Of a DNA stretch of 64,000 nt, positions 3,159-21,152 are shown piece after piece. The stretch is from Candidatus Parcubacteria bacterium (GTDB lineage: Bacteria > Patescibacteriota > Saccharimonadia > UBA4664 > JBIOIQ01): assembly GCA_963718875.1 (NCBI GenBank), contig OY970378.1, positions 324,396 through 388,395 on the forward strand, in the 5' to 3' direction. The notes under the pieces are model-generated. The model saw only the letters and a list, made by a program, of their open reading frames with translations. It was not told the origin of the DNA and searched no databases. Each line of letters opens with the position of its first letter. Position 1 is the stretch's first letter. The translations under genes were made by a program, and so were the position numbers.

Positions 3159-3689
3159 TTAAAGTGAGGCTTTGAGTTTTTCCAATGCCTGCCTGCGCGC
3201 GCTGATGCGGTTTTTATCGGCAAAAGACATTTGGGCTTGAGTTTGATCAAAGCCATCGGGCATAAAAATAGGATCAAAACCAAAGCCGTTTTGGCCATTG
3301 GGAGGAACAATGGTACCTCCGGTGGAAGCAGAAAAATAGGTAATCTCGGTGCGGTTTTTGGCATAGCCATAGGTTACGCTTGATGTGGCGTCATAGAGCT
3401 CCATTTTGTGGGCTAGCTCGTAAATACCGTGCGGCTCAAGTACGTGGATAAACCACTTTATAAGCGGCCCAGGGAGGCCGCCAAGGCAGGCTAGCTCCAA
3501 AGAGACGTCTTCGACTATGAACGGCCCTTCATGGTGGTCAAAAGCGGCTTGAAGCTTAGCTTCAATGACCTTGCGAGGATCAAGGGACTGGATTTCGCGT
3601 AAGTTAACGTCTAATTGCTTCAAACGGGGCAATATAGCAGAAGCTTCAGCAAATTTTCCAGCGTTGCCTGTAATGAAGTAGATTGTCAT
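3159..3689 (-). CDS. rdgB: non-canonical purine NTP pyrophosphatase (RdgB/HAM1 ITPase family)
   Basis: MTIYFITGNAGKFAEA N-terminus and FGFDPIF motif. Start moved to the internal ATG at 3689. Confidence 0.8.
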   Translation of the reverse strand: MTIYFITGNAGKFAEASAILPRLKQLDVNLREIQSLDPRKVIEAKLQAAFDHHEGPFIVEDVSLELACLGGLPGPLIKWFIHVLEPHGIYELAHKMELYDATSSVTYGYAKNRTEITYFSASTGGTIVPPNGQNGFGFDPIFMPDGFDQTQAQMSFADKNRISARRQALEKLKASL

Positions 3690-3851
3690 AAAGATATTAT
3701 AGCTTGATTTGAAATTCCTTACCCAAGGCTTTATAGTGAGTAGCACGCGTTTTACTTAGGAGTTGTTAGGTATAGCAGTATCTCTCACCCGAAGGTCTTG
3801 CGGGAAACAGTGAAGCTTTGATCAAGGCCACTCTATCAAAGGAGCAGAATC

Positions 3852-4556
3852 GTGGGTCGGGTACTGATGGTGATTGGTGGTTCCGGTACTATTGGTGAGG
3901 CGGTCATCGCACAGGCTTTGGCGGACGGCTTTCGGGTCGCTGCCACTTGGAACAGCACGGTTCCTGCAGATAGCGATGACGTGCTATGGGTCCGCTGCGA
4001 TGTAGCTGATCCCGCGTCGGTTGACTCTGCGTTTACCCGGGTCGAAGCCGACCTGGGAGATGTAGAGATCCTGGTGTTCAATGCCGGCGTCAACGCGGAC
4101 GGCATGGCTCTTCGGATGACGGATGAGCAGTGGAGGAATGTGCTCAGTACAAACCTGGATGGTGCATTCTACGCCTGCCGCCGGGCTATGGCCAAGATGG
4201 TGCGTGCTCGCTGGGGTCGAATGATCGTGGTTGGCTCTGTGGTTGCTTTAACCGGAAGCGCGGGTCAGGCAAACTACGCCGCCGCCAAAGCGGGGCTGAT
4301 CGGGCTCGTTAGGGCGTTGGCGCGCGAGCTTGCCGGCCGAAACATCACCGTCAATGTGGTGGCGCCAGGTCCGATTACATCGCGAATGACCTATGCGCTG
4401 ACGTCCGAAAGGCGTGCTGAAATCGTGGCGAAAGTGCCGTTGCGGCGCCTCGGCGAGGGCCAAGATGTGGCTGAGGCGGTGGCGTTCCTGTGGTGGGCTG
4501 GGTACGTGACCGGGGCGGTCATTCCCGTTGACGGCGGTCTGGGCATGGGCCACTAG
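3852..4556 (+). CDS. SDR-family oxidoreductase (FabG-like), in a high-GC island
   Basis: GGSGTIG Rossmann motif, NAG, and YAAAKAG (YxxxK) catalytic motif. GTG start with AAGGAG Shine-Dalgarno. Local GC about 65% by eye against about 45% flanks. Confidence 0.75.
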   Translation: MGRVLMVIGGSGTIGEAVIAQALADGFRVAATWNSTVPADSDDVLWVRCDVADPASVDSAFTRVEADLGDVEILVFNAGVNADGMALRMTDEQWRNVLSTNLDGAFYACRRAMAKMVRARWGRMIVVGSVVALTGSAGQANYAAAKAGLIGLVRALARELAGRNITVNVVAPGPITSRMTYALTSERRAEIVAKVPLRRLGEGQDVAEAVAFLWWAGYVTGAVIPVDGGLGMGH

Positions 4557-6557: not shown

Positions 6558-6641
6558 GAAGTCTGACTTCAATCTTGAGTATAAAAAAACTGGACTTGAA
6601 GTCGGACTTTAATCTGGAGATAGAAGTCAGACTTCCATTTT
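6558..6641. repeat. family B hairpin element (GAAGTCTGACTTCAATCT ... CTTGAAGTCGGACTTTAATCT ... AGAAGTCAGACTTCC), three-arm copy
   Basis: Repeated AAGTC(A/T/G)GACTT arms. Confidence 0.55.
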
Positions 6642-7262: not shown

Positions 7263-7524
7263 CGGCTCATTTGTTAAGAGACCCCCGGCACAAGGCCGGG
7301 GCAGGCCTGAAACGAGTTCAGGTTGACAAAAAATTTGTGTTATAATGAGTTCAAGTTAATAGAGCTCAGGCAAGCCTAACCATCTTGCTAGCTCCGGTCC
7401 GGGTGACGTACATCTGGGAGAAAGTGATCCGCCTGTTGGTGCGATAATCCGAGTGGAACCATCCCGCCAGAGGCGGGGTCTCGGAGCCGGCCTTTGGCGG
7501 TTTTTCGTTTTAAGGAGAGAGTTG

Positions 7525-8106
7525 GTGAAACCAAAGAAAGGCCAGGCTTTAAACCCAAGTGAGCCTAACAAAATATCAAGACCTGGTCTTGGGACGTTCT
7601 GGATAGTTCTTGGTATAGGGCTTTTAATTGCTTGGTTGATGATTCCCGTGGGTGGACTTGTCGTTCAGGCTTGGACTTGTCGTAATGCACCTGGGGTTTT
7701 AGTAGAAGGCGTCGCTTACCCCGACGTTTATAATAACTGTGGCTCGTATAGTGGTGATGTATATAGAGGGTTGTTTTTCTTAAGTTTTATTGCAACTCCG
7801 ATCATACCTGTGGGTTCATTTTTGGTATGGCGTGGGTTGAAGCGACGACAAAAAAATAGTCATGGTGTATCGTTACCAATTAAAGGTTTGTCGATAGTCC
7901 CGATGGTTTACGCAGTTGGATTGATCTTTTTGGCATTAATGTCGGCATTGGCTACCTTGATATATAGTGGTGAGAGGGTTAATGGCGGGCTAAATAGTAG
8001 CTTTTGGTTTTTCTTAATCGTAACGCTCTTTTGGTCTGGAATGGCTTGGATTACCTATAAAAGCGCAAGGAAATCACAGCAACTTGTTAAGGTCAGTAAG
8101 GGGTAA
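7525..8106 (+). CDS. hypothetical integral membrane protein
   Basis: GTG start with TAAGGAGAG Shine-Dalgarno. Four predicted TM helices. The N-terminal 20 aa are near-identical to the thrS N-terminus. Confidence 0.55.
   Translation: MKPKKGQALNPSEPNKISRPGLGTFWIVLGIGLLIAWLMIPVGGLVVQAWTCRNAPGVLVEGVAYPDVYNNCGSYSGDVYRGLFFLSFIATPIIPVGSFLVWRGLKRRQKNSHGVSLPIKGLSIVPMVYAVGLIFLALMSALATLIYSGERVNGGLNSSFWFFLIVTLFWSGMAWITYKSARKSQQLVKVSKG
7543..7594 (+). repeat. 52-nt segment near-identical to the thrS 5' coding end (copy in the upstream membrane-protein gene)
   Basis: CCAGGCTTTAAACCCAAGTGAGCCTAACAAAATATCAAGACCTGGTCTTGGG versus 8147-8198. About 45 of 52 nt identical. Both copies are in frame and encode LNP(S/G)EPNK(I/R)SRPGLG. 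Confidence 0.8.
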
Positions 8107-8117
8107 GGAGGAATGTC

Positions 8118-10133
8118 ATGAGCACACAAAACAATCAAGATAAAGACCAGGTTTTAAATCCGGGCGAGCCTAACAAAAGATCAAGACCTGGTCTTGGCGT
8201 TGAGGCAGATGAACTATACGCTATGCGGCACTCGCTAGCGCATATTATGGCTACAGCCGTAGAGGAGCTGTGGGCTGAGGCTAAGTTGGGCGTGGGACCG
8301 GTTATAGAAAACGGATTTTATTACGATGTGGATTTAGGCGAGACTAAGATATCGGAAGAAGACTTTACCAAAATTGAATCTAAAATGCAGGAAATTATTA
8401 AGGCTGACCAGCCTTTTGAGTGTTTCGAAATGCCGATTGATGAGGCTGTAGAGTGGGCCAAGGAAGCCAAGCAGCCGTATAAGCAAGAGTTGTTGAATGA
8501 CCTTAAGGAGCATGGCACTACGGTGATGAAGGATATTGATGCAAGTTCGCTAGGAGTAGAGTCTAGTTCTCGTCGTACCTCCTCAAACAATGAAGGTGAG
8601 AATCAAAATTCTGAGTCAGGTGAGGATGCTGGATCTGAGGCGTCGAAGGTTAGTGGTCAAATGTCAAATGTTACTCAGGTGTCGTTTTACCGTAACGGGC
8701 CATTTACTGACCTGTGTCGTGGTCCGCACGTGGAGTCGACCGGTAAAGTTGGGGCTTTTAAGCTGATGAAGGTGGCTGGTGCTTACTGGAGGGGGAAAGA
8801 GACCAATCCTCAAATGCAGCGGCTGTATGGGGTGGCATTTGCCACTAAAGAAGAGCTGAAGAGTTATCTTGAGACCATGGAAGAGGCCAAGAAACGGGAT
8901 CACCGTAAGCTTGGGCAGGAGTTGGATCTCTTTACGTTTTCGGACTTAGTCGGTCCAGGATTACCTCTTTATACTCCTAGGGGTACTGTGCTTATAGAAG
9001 AACTAAAAAAAGTATTGCGCGAAATTAGTAATCGTTATGATATGTTGCTTGTTTCGATTCCTCATATTGCAAAAATTGAGCTCTACCAGACATCTGGCCA
9101 TGCCGATAAGTTTTCTGATGAGCTATTTCATGTTAAGAGTCATTATGATCAACCTTTCGTGATGAAGCCAGTAAACTGCCCACACCATACTCAAATTTAT
9201 GCTGCGCGGCCGCGTAGTTACCGTGAGCTACCATTGCGCTATATCGAGCAAACAATGCAATATCGCGACGAGAAACCTGGTCAAATAGGCGGTTTGCAAC
9301 GAACAAGGGGCTTTACTGTAGATGATGGTCATACGTTCTGTCGTGTTGATCAGATTGAACAGGAAGCCTCTATGTCGGTGGAGGTGATCAAGGATTTCTA
9401 TACTAACTTAGGCCTCTGGGGTGAGCATTGGGTGTCGTTATCCGTTCGAGAGCCTGGTGCCCAAGACAAGTATATTGGCCTTTCTGAAGACTGGGATAAG
9501 GCTGAATCCATGCTTGACGAAGTCTCTACCAAATATGGGTTGAACGCAAAACGGATGGAAGGTGAAGCTGCCATTTATGGTCCAAAGCTCGACTTTATGT
9601 TCAAGGATGCGCTGGGACGAGAGACTCAACTGGCTACGGTACAGCTGGATTTTGCCATGCCCAAACGTTTTGGACTAACTTATACTGACGAAAATAGCGA
9701 GTTAATACCACCCGTAATGATTCACAGAGCCATTCTAGGCTCGTTTGAACGCTTCATAATGCTTTTAATTGAACATTTTGCGGGCAAGTTCCCGGTTTGG
9801 CTGGCGCCAGAGCAAATAAGAGTAGCGACGGTAAACGACTCCAAAAAATTGGAAGATTATGCCAGAGTGCTTGTGAAGGACATGAAGGAAGCTGGGTTGC
9901 GTGCGGAGCTTGATCTGTCGAATGAGAGTGTGGGTAAGAAGATCAGAGCGGCAGAACTTTACAAGGTTCCTTACACGCTTGTGGTGGGAGAAAAAGAGCT
10001 GGAAAGTGGCAAAGTTACGCCTAGAGTGCGCAAGGATTTGGCCACAAGTGAGCCTTCTGAGTTGGAAGTAGATAAGTTTATTCAGGTCGTGGCGGGTGAA
10101 GCAAAGTCACGGGCGAGTAAAGCGAGCTTATAA
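8118..10133 (+). CDS. thrS: threonine--tRNA ligase
   Basis: Editing-domain motif HSLAHIM, class II catalytic core and C-terminal anticodon-binding domain. Perfect TAAGGAGG Shine-Dalgarno. The TGS N1 domain is absent and there is a Ser/Glu-rich low-complexity insert. Confidence 0.9.
   Translation: MSTQNNQDKDQVLNPGEPNKRSRPGLGVEADELYAMRHSLAHIMATAVEELWAEAKLGVGPVIENGFYYDVDLGETKISEEDFTKIESKMQEIIKADQPFECFEMPIDEAVEWAKEAKQPYKQELLNDLKEHGTTVMKDIDASSLGVESSSRRTSSNNEGENQNSESGEDAGSEASKVSGQMSNVTQVSFYRNGPFTDLCRGPHVESTGKVGAFKLMKVAGAYWRGKETNPQMQRLYGVAFATKEELKSYLETMEEAKKRDHRKLGQELDLFTFSDLVGPGLPLYTPRGTVLIEELKKVLREISNRYDMLLVSIPHIAKIELYQTSGHADKFSDELFHVKSHYDQPFVMKPVNCPHHTQIYAARPRSYRELPLRYIEQTMQYRDEKPGQIGGLQRTRGFTVDDGHTFCRVDQIEQEASMSVEVIKDFYTNLGLWGEHWVSLSVREPGAQDKYIGLSEDWDKAESMLDEVSTKYGLNAKRMEGEAAIYGPKLDFMFKDALGRETQLATVQLDFAMPKRFGLTYTDENSELIPPVMIHRAILGSFERFIMLLIEHFAGKFPVWLAPEQIRVATVNDSKKLEDYARVLVKDMKEAGLRAELDLSNESVGKKIRAAELYKVPYTLVVGEKELESGKVTPRVRKDLATSEPSELEVDKFIQVVAGEAKSRASKASL
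8147..8198 (+). repeat. 52-nt segment, thrS copy
   Basis: CCAGGTTTTAAATCCGGGCGAGCCTAACAAAAGATCAAGACCTGGTCTTGGC. Confidence 0.8.
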
Positions 10134-13546: not shown

Positions 13547-15010
13547 ATGTTTCTGATGATCATTTGGTTAGCAAAGCTGGCTGGAACGTTGAGTCGGCTT
13601 TTTGGTAAAGGCGGCGGATCGGCCTTGCCGGGTTTGTTGGCTGAACAAAGCGACGATAATATTTTGACTCAACTCGGTTCGCGATTAAAATATGGCTCAA
13701 TCGTTATTACCGGTACAAATGGTAAAACAACAACCACCAAAATGGTTTGTGAAATTCTCGAATCTGTAGGCTACAAAGTTATAACTAACCAATCGGGCTC
13801 AAATTTGAGTCGCGGAATTGTTTCGACTTTAGTTGAAAAAATCAGCTTGACCGGTAATTTTAGTGCTGAACTTGGTGTTTTTGAAGTGGACGAAGCTAGT
13901 ATGCCGGCAGTGTGTGCTGCCCTCAAGCCTAAAAGCGTGATGGTTTTAAACTTGTTTCGGGATCAGCTTGATCGCTATGGCGAGTTAGATCAGACGGCCG
14001 CCATGATAGGTAAAGCGATTTCGCCACTTGAGACCGAGCTGTTTTTGAATGCCGACGATCCGTTGGTGGCTAGTCTGGCCAGATACTGCAAACCTCAAGA
14101 CCAGGTCTTAAGTCCAGATGTTTCAAGTTCTCGTGTCAAGGCCTGGTCTTTGAACCCTCGTATCCATTATTTTGGGGTTGAAGCCGCAAAAACCCTAAAA
14201 CTCGATCACGATCTAGCGGCAGATTCCGATCATTGTCCGTTTGATGGAGCGGCTTTGCACTACAAGAATAATTTTTTTGGACATATTGGGCACTATGTCT
14301 GCCCGAACGGTGATTTTGAGCGGCCGAAAACCGAAACAAGCTTAGTGGAATATAAAAACGGCCAGCCTTTTAAGCTTAAAAGTGAAAATGGCGGTGAAGC
14401 TAAGCTTTATTTACCGCTGCCAGGCCTCTATAACGCCTATAACGCTCTGGCGGCGGTAAGCCTCTGTGAAACGCTGGGTATTACAGTTGAAAGGGCTGCA
14501 AAGGCTTTAGAACGCGTTACAGCGGCCTTTGGCAGGGTAGAGAGACTGGAAATTGAAGGCAGGACTGTTTACTTGCTTTTAATTAAAAATCCGACTGGCT
14601 TTAACCAAGTGATTCAGACCTTTTTGACCAGTAATAAAGCTCATAGCATTATGGTAGCCATAAACGACAATTTTGCGGATGGACGAGACGTGAGTTGGTT
14701 GTGGGATGTGGCAATTGAAGAGTTGCGAGTTCAACACCCGTCGTCAAACGTTAAAGGCCCTAAACCGGCAGTTGGCAGTGTTGGACACAATATTGTAGTG
14801 AGTGGCGATCGAGCGCTTGATATGGGTTTACGCTTTAAGTATGCGGGGCAGGCAGTGGCGATCGAGACTAATTTAGAAGCGGCTTTTAATCAAGCTGTTA
14901 GATCTGCCTCTCCTGGTGAAACGGTGTATGTACTCCCGACTTATACGGCCATGTTGGAATTACGCGAACGTGTTAGAACACTAGGCCTTGTTAAAGGCTA
15001 CTGGTCATGA
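13547..15010 (+). CDS. murT: lipid II isoglutaminyl synthase, Mur-ligase-like subunit MurT
   Basis: Mur ligase P-loop GTNGKTTT, central Cys-rich ribbon (CPFDG...HYVCPNG) and C-terminal DUF1727-like region. Confidence 0.8.
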   Translation: MFLMIIWLAKLAGTLSRLFGKGGGSALPGLLAEQSDDNILTQLGSRLKYGSIVITGTNGKTTTTKMVCEILESVGYKVITNQSGSNLSRGIVSTLVEKISLTGNFSAELGVFEVDEASMPAVCAALKPKSVMVLNLFRDQLDRYGELDQTAAMIGKAISPLETELFLNADDPLVASLARYCKPQDQVLSPDVSSSRVKAWSLNPRIHYFGVEAAKTLKLDHDLAADSDHCPFDGAALHYKNNFFGHIGHYVCPNGDFERPKTETSLVEYKNGQPFKLKSENGGEAKLYLPLPGLYNAYNALAAVSLCETLGITVERAAKALERVTAAFGRVERLEIEGRTVYLLLIKNPTGFNQVIQTFLTSNKAHSIMVAINDNFADGRDVSWLWDVAIEELRVQHPSSNVKGPKPAVGSVGHNIVVSGDRALDMGLRFKYAGQAVAIETNLEAAFNQAVRSASPGETVYVLPTYTAMLELRERVRTLGLVKGYWS

Positions 15011-15164: not shown

Positions 15165-15896
15165 ATGTTAAATGTCAAAGGTCAATCGTTAACAATCGTA
15201 CACTTGTACGCAAATGAGATGAACATTTATGGCGACAGAGGGAATGTACTGACTTTGTGTCAGCGGTTGGCTTGGCGGGGGATTGAGGCGAATGTTGTAG
15301 AGGTAGGAGTGGGGCAAAAATATGATTTTACTGAGGCCGATATTGTGTTTGCTGGTGGAGGTCAAGATAGGGGTCAGTTGGCTGTGGGAGCTGATTTACT
15401 GAAGCGCTCTACTAATCTGCATTTGGCTGCCCAAGCCGGAGTAGTTATGTTAACTGTTTGCGGTACTTATCAGTTGTTTGGGCGCTTTTTTGATACGCAC
15501 GAAGGTCATAAAATTCCTGGTATAGGTTTGTTTGGTGCTCAAACGGTGGCTAGCAAAACTAGGATGATTGGAAATGTGGTGCTCGAAAGCGCCTGGGGCA
15601 GGTTGGTGGGTTTTGAAAACCATAGCGGCCAAACTATACTAGATGCTGCTCAGCCGGCACTAGGGAAGGTGCTAAAAGGTTTCGGCAACAACGAAACTAG
15701 TGGCGCTGAAGGTGCTGTTGTTCACAATGTTTATGGCACTTACTTACATGGGCCGTTGCTGCCTAAAAACCCGGCTTTTGCCGATCATTTGCTACTGACT
15801 GCTTTGCGGCGCAAGCATAACATTAGCGAGTTGCAGCCACTTGATGATCAGCTTGAATTATCAGCTGCGGCTATTGCGGCAAAACGCCCGCAATAA
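15165..15896 (+). CDS. gatD: lipid II isoglutaminyl synthase glutaminase subunit GatD (CobB/CobQ-like GATase)
   Basis: Close pattern match to S. aureus GatD (MNIYGDRGN ... TVCGTYQLFG ... GFENHSG ... YGTYLHGPLLPKNP). Confidence 0.8.
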   Translation: MLNVKGQSLTIVHLYANEMNIYGDRGNVLTLCQRLAWRGIEANVVEVGVGQKYDFTEADIVFAGGGQDRGQLAVGADLLKRSTNLHLAAQAGVVMLTVCGTYQLFGRFFDTHEGHKIPGIGLFGAQTVASKTRMIGNVVLESAWGRLVGFENHSGQTILDAAQPALGKVLKGFGNNETSGAEGAVVHNVYGTYLHGPLLPKNPAFADHLLLTALRRKHNISELQPLDDQLELSAAAIAAKRPQ

Positions 15897-15937
15897 CATC
15901 AAGAGTCGTGAGTCGTGAGTCGTGCTCAGGGATAGAC

Positions 15938-15992
15938 TAAGTCAGACTTCAAATCGGATTGCTTTGGCTATCCAAGATTAAAGTCTGACTTA
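15938..15992. repeat. family B hairpin element (TAAGTCAGACTTCAAATCGGATTGCTTTGGCTATCCAAGATTAAAGTCTGACTTA)
   Basis: 11-bp inverted arms AAGTCAGACTT/AAGTCTGACTT. Confidence 0.6.
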
Positions 15993-16128: not shown

Positions 16129-16184
16129 CAAAGTCAGGCTTCAAATCCAATTGCTTGATCATCCAAGATTAAAGTCTGACTTAC
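16129..16184. repeat. family B hairpin element, second copy in the same intergenic region
   Basis: CAAAGTCAGGCTTCAAATCCAATTGCTTGATCATCCAAGATTAAAGTCTGACTTAC. Confidence 0.6.
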
Positions 16185-19096: not shown

Positions 19097-19154
19097 AAAA
19101 GTCGGACTTCAAATCTGGTTTCTAGGACGATGAAGATTAAAGTCCGACTTTAAT
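19097..19154. repeat. family B hairpin element (AAAAGTCGGACTTCAAATCTGG ... GATTAAAGTCCGACTTTAAT)
   Basis: Compensatory change (CGGAC/GTCCG) preserves pairing. Confidence 0.6.
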
Positions 19155-21133: not shown

Positions 21134-21152
21134 CCAGAGGTTTAACCTCTAG
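21134..21152. repeat. cassette-boundary palindrome copy 1 (CCAGAGGTTTAACCTCTAG)
   Basis: 19-bp near-perfect palindrome 44 bp downstream of tRNA-Pro. Confidence 0.8.

Follow-up and report, generated by a model that had tools for sequence, protein, structure and literature searches.

In a 64,000-nucleotide stretch of contig OY970378.1 (GenBank assembly GCA_963718875.1, Candidatus Parcubacteria bacterium), referred to here as the window and providing the coordinates used throughout, the threonyl-tRNA synthetase gene thrS and the membrane-protein gene directly upstream carry a near-identical in-frame segment close to their starts. We conclude, with a probability of about 75%, that the shared segment represents two sister copies of a dispersed hairpin repeat, of a kind resembling the doublets of repetitive extragenic palindromes (REPs) termed REPINs or the Rickettsia palindromic elements (RPEs), and not a thrS control element. 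The proposed unit of this repeat, which we call family A, is a doublet of ~55 nt made of two palindromic 13–17 bp arms in inverted relation, 20–30 nt apart, whose single strand would fold with the arms forming the base of a hairpin. We propose that family A is a non-autonomous, selfish-type repeat that may spread within the genome as REPINs or RPEs do, its folded strand probably being moved by a trans-acting symmetric (dimeric) protein specific for the stem base, as suggested by the palindromic nature of that base. Copies would survive only where an in-frame insertion of ~20 residues is harmless. The copies in the upstream gene (c1) and in thrS (c2) would accordingly represent insertions into tolerant N-terminal tails of adjacent genes, one being probably derived from its neighbour, or the two from a single master, after the split from the lineage of a related locus with the same operon (L143), and no function in thrS needs to be assumed.

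The shared segment and its hairpin anatomy

The repeat in thrS and the upstream gene is real and far above chance. A repeat search aligned positions 7528–7592 with 8133–8197 at an offset of 605 nt, with 54 of 65 positions identical (83%), rising to 48 of 55 (87%) in the best core (7538–7592 against 8143–8197). The 32-mer at the 3′ end of the repeat occurs twice in the window, the two occurrences differing at one base, and not once in 100 shuffled sequences, and 605 was the sole offset between 52 and 2000 nt at which a 52-nt comparison gave at least 44 matches. The flanks of the two copies are dissimilar, with a sharp 3′ edge after CTTGG. The original prediction, made by a model from this DNA alone, had reported a near-identical in-frame segment in these two genes, and in this it was correct; its pairing of 7543–7594 with 8147–8198 was one base out of register, giving only 20 matches of 52, compared to 44 of 52 (85%) when 7543–7594 is paired with 8148–8199. 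The copies also lie nearer the starts than the 20–30 codons it had given, at codons ~2–23 of the upstream gene and ~6–27 of thrS.

Both copies are built from paired arms. The arm motif AAGRCCWGGYYTT has six sites in the window, all in pairs 40–41 nt apart (7538/7578, 8143/8183 and 14097/14138), the third pair being a copy in murT (c3), and its strand matches number 10, compared to 0.45 expected. All three copies fall within 6.6 kb. Further arm pairs with up to three mismatches occurred in about the number expected by chance, estimated at roughly four, and only these three copies were accepted. The spacer is common to c1 and c2 (22 of 28 positions identical) and different in c3, marking c1 and c2 as sister copies. 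While all three genes read the left arm as (K/Q)(D/G)Q(V/A)L, the right arm is read as SRPGL in c1 and c2 and as KAWSL in c3, where the spacer is one base longer, indicating that conservation acts at the level of DNA or RNA, not of the peptide. As a whole, c3 encodes the insert QDQVLSPDVSSSRVKAWSL in MurT.

The left and right arms are mutually complementary, and a doublet is able to fold into a hairpin with a stem of 13–15 bp. RNA structure prediction for both segments, which the original prediction had put forward as a check, bore out a stable fold for one of them: c2 forms a 13-bp stem at −22.1 kcal/mol (z = −2.9) that begins 26 nt past the thrS AUG, whereas the hairpin of c1, with its decayed left arm, is weak (z = −0.5). 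The hairpin of c3 has z = −3.9, and c2, c3 and the copies at another locus described below (L003) together span z values of −2.9 to −4.6. Across family A, the extended arm consensus is TCAAGACC-N-GGTCTTGA, a 13–17 bp palindrome around one free base. These free centre bases are complementary in 123 of 135 doublets (C/G 45, A/T 36, G/C 27, T/A 15); among 125 unique doublets the figure is 90%, compared to 28% in shuffles, and each of the four pair types is represented. Pairing continues into the spacer, above chance at positions 3–7 (41–65% vs 27–34%) and strongest at positions 3–4, while in the outer flanks of the 125 unique copies it does not exceed chance, and the boundary of the element is therefore set at the arms. 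The bases flanking the arms follow a profile in 118 doublets, with T at −2 (66%), C at −1 (68%), G at +1 (64%) and A at +2 (52%).

Host genes and distribution of family A

Judged by alignment with orthologues, all three copies in the window are insertions. The 119 listed homologues of the threonyl-tRNA synthetase (ThrRS; up to 72% identity) all begin M-(5–12 polar residues)-L[HY]AMRHS without an N-terminal insert, and the window protein has ~22 extra residues exactly at c2. At L143, the 3′ end of an operon leader with its terminator is followed by the membrane gene and then by thrS (MKEDNQKDNLYAMRHS...), neither gene containing the element. Compared to the L143 thrS DNA, c2 shows up as a clean in-frame gap of 66 nt, flanked by AGAT, which is ambiguous as a target duplication. 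At c1 the element peptide is missing from the L143 homologue, and the diverged N-terminal DNA gives only a 30-nt gap with undefined insertion boundaries. Since the L143 operon lacks the element, the arrangement of leader, membrane gene and thrS is older than the repeat, and both copies are later additions. Integration of a membrane-gene cassette by a Campbell-type event at the element was also considered and was rejected on the native-looking N-terminus of each gene and the presence of both genes without the element at L143.

On the evidence of its homologue, the upstream membrane gene is a real, conserved gene and no product of duplication. A word-indexed search found no homologue of the protein, which has no Pfam family, and an exhaustive search gave one, P0242 (E = 7e-42, 50% identity over residues 29–192), encoded directly before thrS on L143. 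The codon score is best in frame 0, and the start is most likely GTG 7525, from which public assemblies call a 193-aa protein, with a ribosome-binding-site-like AAGGAG 7 nt upstream and an equivalent GTG start in the L143 homologue. A partial duplication that created or extended the upstream open reading frame (ORF), one of the possibilities raised originally, is accordingly supported in part: the copies are sisters and c1 lengthens the N-terminal tail, but the ORF was not created, having a 50%-identical homologue at L143 without the segment. Nor is the pattern one of a motif present in thrS only with the upstream ORF missing in relatives, which the original prediction had also envisaged; across related loci neither copy is conserved, and none was found in the relatives examined.

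The third copy shows the same behaviour in a cell-wall enzyme. No insert is present at the c3 site in 41 of 44 aligned MurT homologues, and in the AlphaFold model the insert is a low-confidence coil, with a pLDDT of 52–60 compared to a model mean of 86.6. P0122, a MurT 75% identical to that of the window and encoded at L003 (GCA_025491075.1), carries the element at the same murT site (L003 3109–3162, corresponding to window 14097–14150), and two further elements lie within 4.8 kb at L003, one intergenic and one providing the last codons and stop codon of miaA. P0122 is nearer to the element-free P0123 (80%) and P0124 (79%) than to the window MurT (75%), and therefore gain or loss at the murT site has happened more than once; the loop has the look of a hot spot for insertion. 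A further MurT, P0133 (L004 ~3460–3580), has a longer insert at the same loop that ends in a family A right arm. Intragenic copies are read in whichever frame is open and are placed at protein termini or, in MurT, in the low-confidence loop.

We observed family A well beyond the window, in a scan of species-representative genomes and in a scan of metagenome contigs with the centre bases left free. Doublets were found at 15 loci in metagenome-assembled genomes (MAGs) of the genome scan, belonging to Omnitrophota (three MAGs, ten contigs), Planctomycetales/Planctomycetia, Parcubacteria and one unclassified bacterium, and perfect-arm AAGACC-N-GGTCTT doublets were found in at least 120 metagenome contigs; two patterns gave no copy in 2.9 million viral contigs, and the element is accordingly not taken to be carried by phages. 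By gene context, 91 copies lie between genes and 8 inside them, the 91 classified intergenic copies falling between 81 co-directional, 7 convergent and 3 divergent gene pairs, which is near background. In 15 of 163 copies the doublet is read through in frame within a long ORF (with 60 or more open codons to either side). The intragenic copies in other phyla occupy various frames and encode unrelated peptides (RPGLD.., DQALTS.., KDRVL..), some in giant ORFs. The claim of a thrS-specific element is contradicted by this distribution, which takes in murT, the stop codon of miaA in a relative and, in other phyla, unrelated genes, and a duplicated thrS leader or autoregulatory element, also suggested originally, is not supported either, with the segment lying in coding regions and being found neither in the 119 ThrRS homologues nor in the L143 operon. 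No Rfam family was found for the thrS locus, the three window copies or ten element-bearing loci.

Two further observations concern individual copies. At L011 (1033–1087), in the Parcubacteria MAG JAHWKN01, the RNase H-like endonuclease domain of UvrC contains an in-frame doublet. Three doublets form a tandem array, repeating every ~36 nt, downstream of neighbouring genes both at L010 (6939–7130), a Planctomycetales MAG in which the flanking genes are convergent, and at L032 (1995–2186), an unassigned metagenome contig, their centre bases alternating C/T/A/T/C/G.

Table 1. Repeat copies, host genes and other features of the window. Positions are window coordinates.
Feature	Position	Strand	Description
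c1, family A doublet	7528–7592	+	Arms 7538–7550 (AAGGCCAGGCTTT) and 7578–7590 (AAGACCTGGTCTT); spacer 27 nt; left arm partly decayed
c2, family A doublet	8133–8197	+	Arms 8143–8155 (AAGACCAGGTTTT) and 8183–8195 (AAGACCTGGTCTT); spacer 27 nt
c3, family A doublet, in murT	14095–14152	+	Arms 14097–14109 (AAGACCAGGTCTT) and 14138–14150 (AAGGCCTGGTCTT); spacer 28 nt
Membrane gene, host of c1	7525–8106	+	Predicted four-helix membrane protein, 193 aa; first gene after the leader
thrS, host of c2	8118–10133	+	Threonyl-tRNA synthetase, 671 aa; ATG 8118; Pfam domains and homologues
murT, host of c3	13547–15010	+	Lipid II isoglutaminyl synthase subunit; Pfam Mur_ligase_M and MurT_C; homologues
GATase_3 gene, murT partner	15165–15896		CobB/CobQ-like amidotransferase
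Operon leader	7353–7524	+	Candidate regulatory RNA, from sequence, terminator scan and fold; separate from the repeat
Family B cluster	6559–6634	.	Three arms (AAGTCNGACTT) at 6559, 6599 and 6624; intergenic
Family B doublet	15939–15991		Intergenic
Family B doublet	16131–16182		Intergenic
Family B doublet	19099–19150		Intergenic

Comparison with known repeats and competing explanations

A REPIN is defined as a pair of short palindromes, inverted with respect to each other, whose intervening spacer varies and pairs with itself (Bertels & Rainey, PMC3337134), and intragenic REP dimers encoding 20–30 aa are documented (Di Nocera et al., PMC3733652). Family A shares with REPINs the paired inverted palindromes, the variable and partly pairing spacer, the predicted single-strand hairpin, several discrete spacing classes, a mostly extragenic placement with some tandem clusters, and occasional intragenic dimers, of which the copy in uvrC (L011) is an example in keeping with the bias towards repair genes published for intragenic REPs. 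Unlike REPs, family A has no GTAG or CGTC tag and is flanked by TC..GA, its arm forms a perfect palindrome with one free base at the centre instead of a stem with a loop, and no association with RAYT was seen in the loci examined. Its hosts, members of the candidate phyla radiation (CPR), Omnitrophota and Planctomycetota, differ from those of described REPs, and its arm is common to several phyla, whereas many described REP families are species-specific.

RPEs, according to the summary of Ogata et al. (2000, 2002) in PMC10969869, are in-frame insertions in housekeeping genes. Intragenic REP dimers and RPEs alike lengthen housekeeping proteins in frame by 20–30 residues or more (PMC3733652, PMC10969869). 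Like family A, they are palindromic, lie in frame in unrelated housekeeping genes, are missing from orthologues and are tolerated in the protein, and in-frame insertions of this type occur in thrS, murT, the membrane gene and the uvrC of a Parcubacteria MAG. RPEs measure ~100–150 bp and have a family-conserved peptide, whereas family A measures ~55–66 nt and its frames vary; unlike RPEs, it is mostly intergenic, and the two show no sequence relation. [quoted passage not shown] CRISPR-like mini-arrays and integron attC sites have other unit sizes and signature sequences that are missing here, and both were rejected. We therefore regard family A as a new family of an already known type of element, with an arm conserved across phyla. 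A small CPR genome, whose source contig measures 1.19 Mb, in this respect carries hairpin repeats in frame in an aminoacyl-tRNA synthetase and a cell-wall enzyme much as Rickettsia carries RPEs. Family A accounts for some lineage-specific protein inserts, and masking it would help annotation pipelines and protein alignments of the host phyla.

Several points weigh against reading family A as a mobile REPIN- or RPE-like repeat. Its mobility and mode of spread are what we infer from the pattern of copies, and copy density was counted only locally, at 3 doublets in the 64-kb window, 3 in 4.8 kb at L003 and up to 4 in 9 kb at L054. No GTAG or CGTC tag was present at the arm flanks of 118 doublets, and direct repeats of 2–5 nt at offsets 0–3, as expected of target-site duplications, were no commoner than chance. 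All-against-all BLAST of ~1,565 flanking ORFs gave no gene family in more than eight loci and no transposase, and no gene for mobilisation came to light. A motif search of 853 kb of loci and the window found two RayT-like ORFs, at L102 and L110, both flanked by ordinary GTAG REPs, not by family A arms; as RAYT is single-copy per genome, its absence from such fragments says little. Arms so nearly identical between phyla could instead be the mark of a conserved DNA-binding protein of the host, and the position of c1 and c2 just past start codons leaves room for a secondary effect on translation.

The two RayT-like (HUH/Y1) genes, at L102 2352–3041 and L110 390–929, have GTAG-tagged REPs and stand on contigs that also carry family A doublets, so that two repeat systems coexist there. 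A search for an autonomous form of the element, as distant arm pairs enclosing a gene, returned only ordinary genes between doublets.

A broader proposal, which we advance tentatively and would not yet back at even odds, is that the AAGACC-N-GGTCTT doublet represents an undescribed, untagged REP-like superfamily whose arm is kept by one horizontally shared hairpin-recognising enzyme distinct from the GTAG-type RayT. This superfamily would have a 17-bp arm common to Saccharibacteria, Parcubacteria, Omnitrophota and Planctomycetota and a spread that includes essential genes of streamlined CPR genomes. In literature searches, the arm sequence matched only unrelated primers, and nothing on family A was found when looking for REPs, MITEs or T-boxes described in CPR or Omnitrophota. 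If one factor does recognise the arm, the family would offer a way into the transactions of single-strand DNA or RNA in unculturable organisms.

Among the competing explanations, two are unlikely to a similar degree. The first is that the repeat has been co-opted as a regulatory site, in which hairpins or arms past both starts are bound by one protein or RNA, or slow early elongation, and so co-regulate both genes. This would fit the presence of two copies of the same subfamily, in the same orientation, within the first ~27 codons of consecutive operon genes, the stable c2 hairpin shortly after the AUG, and the strict palindromy of the arms, which is frequent in protein-binding sites; because of that palindromy, a protein or RNA target shared by both copies, as originally suggested, is possible. 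Any such factor would act genome-wide and not on thrS. Co-option is opposed by the L143 operon, which is the same and has no copies, by the lack of the insert in all ThrRS homologues, by the placement of other copies, which in several phyla are found in the middle of a gene, across a stop codon or separating unrelated genes, by the decayed left arm and non-significant fold of c1, and by the leader with terminator that already precedes the operon. The likeness to known thrS control, namely the translational operator of E. coli and the T-box of Gram-positive bacteria, lies in structured RNA near the thrS start, which is what the original prediction had in mind; those elements are part of the 5′ untranslated leader and conserved together with the gene, whereas c1 and c2 lie in coding sequence and are missing in orthologues.

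The second, to which we give equally little credence, is that the arms are chromosomal binding sites, parS-like or operator-like, of a conserved DNA-binding protein that needs paired sites, and do not belong to a mobile repeat. The identity of the 13–17 bp arm in Saccharibacteria, Parcubacteria, Omnitrophota and Planctomycetota while spacers vary is what such a protein would lead one to expect, as is the clustering of the three window copies, and the searches made brought up no transposase, target duplication or viral copy. Binding to duplex DNA would not account for the 90% centre-base complementarity or the pairing into the spacer, nor for insertions of ~20 codons in conserved proteins that are gained or lost between relatives, nor for tandem arrays and densities of up to four doublets in 9 kb; moreover, the same genome contains a second arm sequence of the same design, family B.

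Much less probable, and contradicted by L143, is a local duplication of the thrS 5′ end that made the upstream ORF, or an assembly artefact. The direct repeats 605 nt apart with their common spacer, and the failure of the word-indexed search, would be in keeping with either, but the 50%-identical L143 homologue stands before thrS without the segment, the similarity ends at the element edges, and a second contig, a 16-kb Logan assembly of run ERR12037361, yields calls of the same two proteins (193 aa and 671 aa). Least credible of all, and contradicted by the comparison of frames, is a shared peptide motif (..LNP.EPNK.SRPGLG..) under protein-level selection, such as a tag for targeting or interaction: the two in-frame copies do give similar peptides, but the murT and other-phyla copies keep the nucleotides in other frames with unrelated peptides, most copies are intergenic, and homologues lack the peptide.

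Operon leader and other features of the window

The repeat provides no evidence for thrS autoregulation or for a newborn gene, and the real candidate regulator is the upstream leader, which is probably a regulatory RNA with T-box-like anatomy and is put forward as a lead. It is preceded by TGTTATAAT at 7338–7346. By eye, a first hairpin spans 7362–7394 with ACC at 7379–7381 in its loop, and UGGAACC at 7454–7460 sits between the helices CCGAG/CUCGG and AUCCCGCC/GGCGGGGU; a terminator hairpin follows at 7464–7500, and then a U run. Homologous leaders stand directly upstream of thrS in L002 (~3830–3990) and L140 (~1020–1185) and precede the membrane gene in L143 (1–40), and were not found in L001, L141 or L142. 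Rfam gave no T-box in this leader or the related ones, even at E ≤ 10.

The window comes from a Saccharibacterium; the best matches of its ThrRS are named Candidatus Saccharimonadales. Two peculiarities of this protein noted in the original prediction were confirmed. By Pfam, it contains only tRNA_SAD, the class II core and the anticodon-binding domain, so lacking the N-terminal TGS domain, and this is a clade-wide trait as far as the 119 listed homologues represent the clade, all of which share it. The Ser/Glu-rich insert is a segment of ~30 aa rich in Ser, Glu and Asn that does not occur in 42 aligned homologues; it lies at ~8560–8650 of the window (ThrRS residues ~148–178), within a variable loop immediately N-terminal to where tRNA_SAD matches, and no arms or repeats were recognised around it.

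Family B resembles family A in design and in its inner flanks. All four of its sites are intergenic, and its doublets have complementary centre bases (A/T, A/T and G/C) at a spacing of 41–42 nt; none was found in 853 kb of other fetched loci. Immediately 3′ of the GATase_3 stop codon, at 15903–15923, GAGTCGT is repeated three times in tandem. A palindrome of 19–21 bp, CYAGAGGTTWAACCTCTRG, occurs at 21137, 22147, 23847 and 24775, once in each of four consecutive intergenic regions, and could be an operator or another repeat family.

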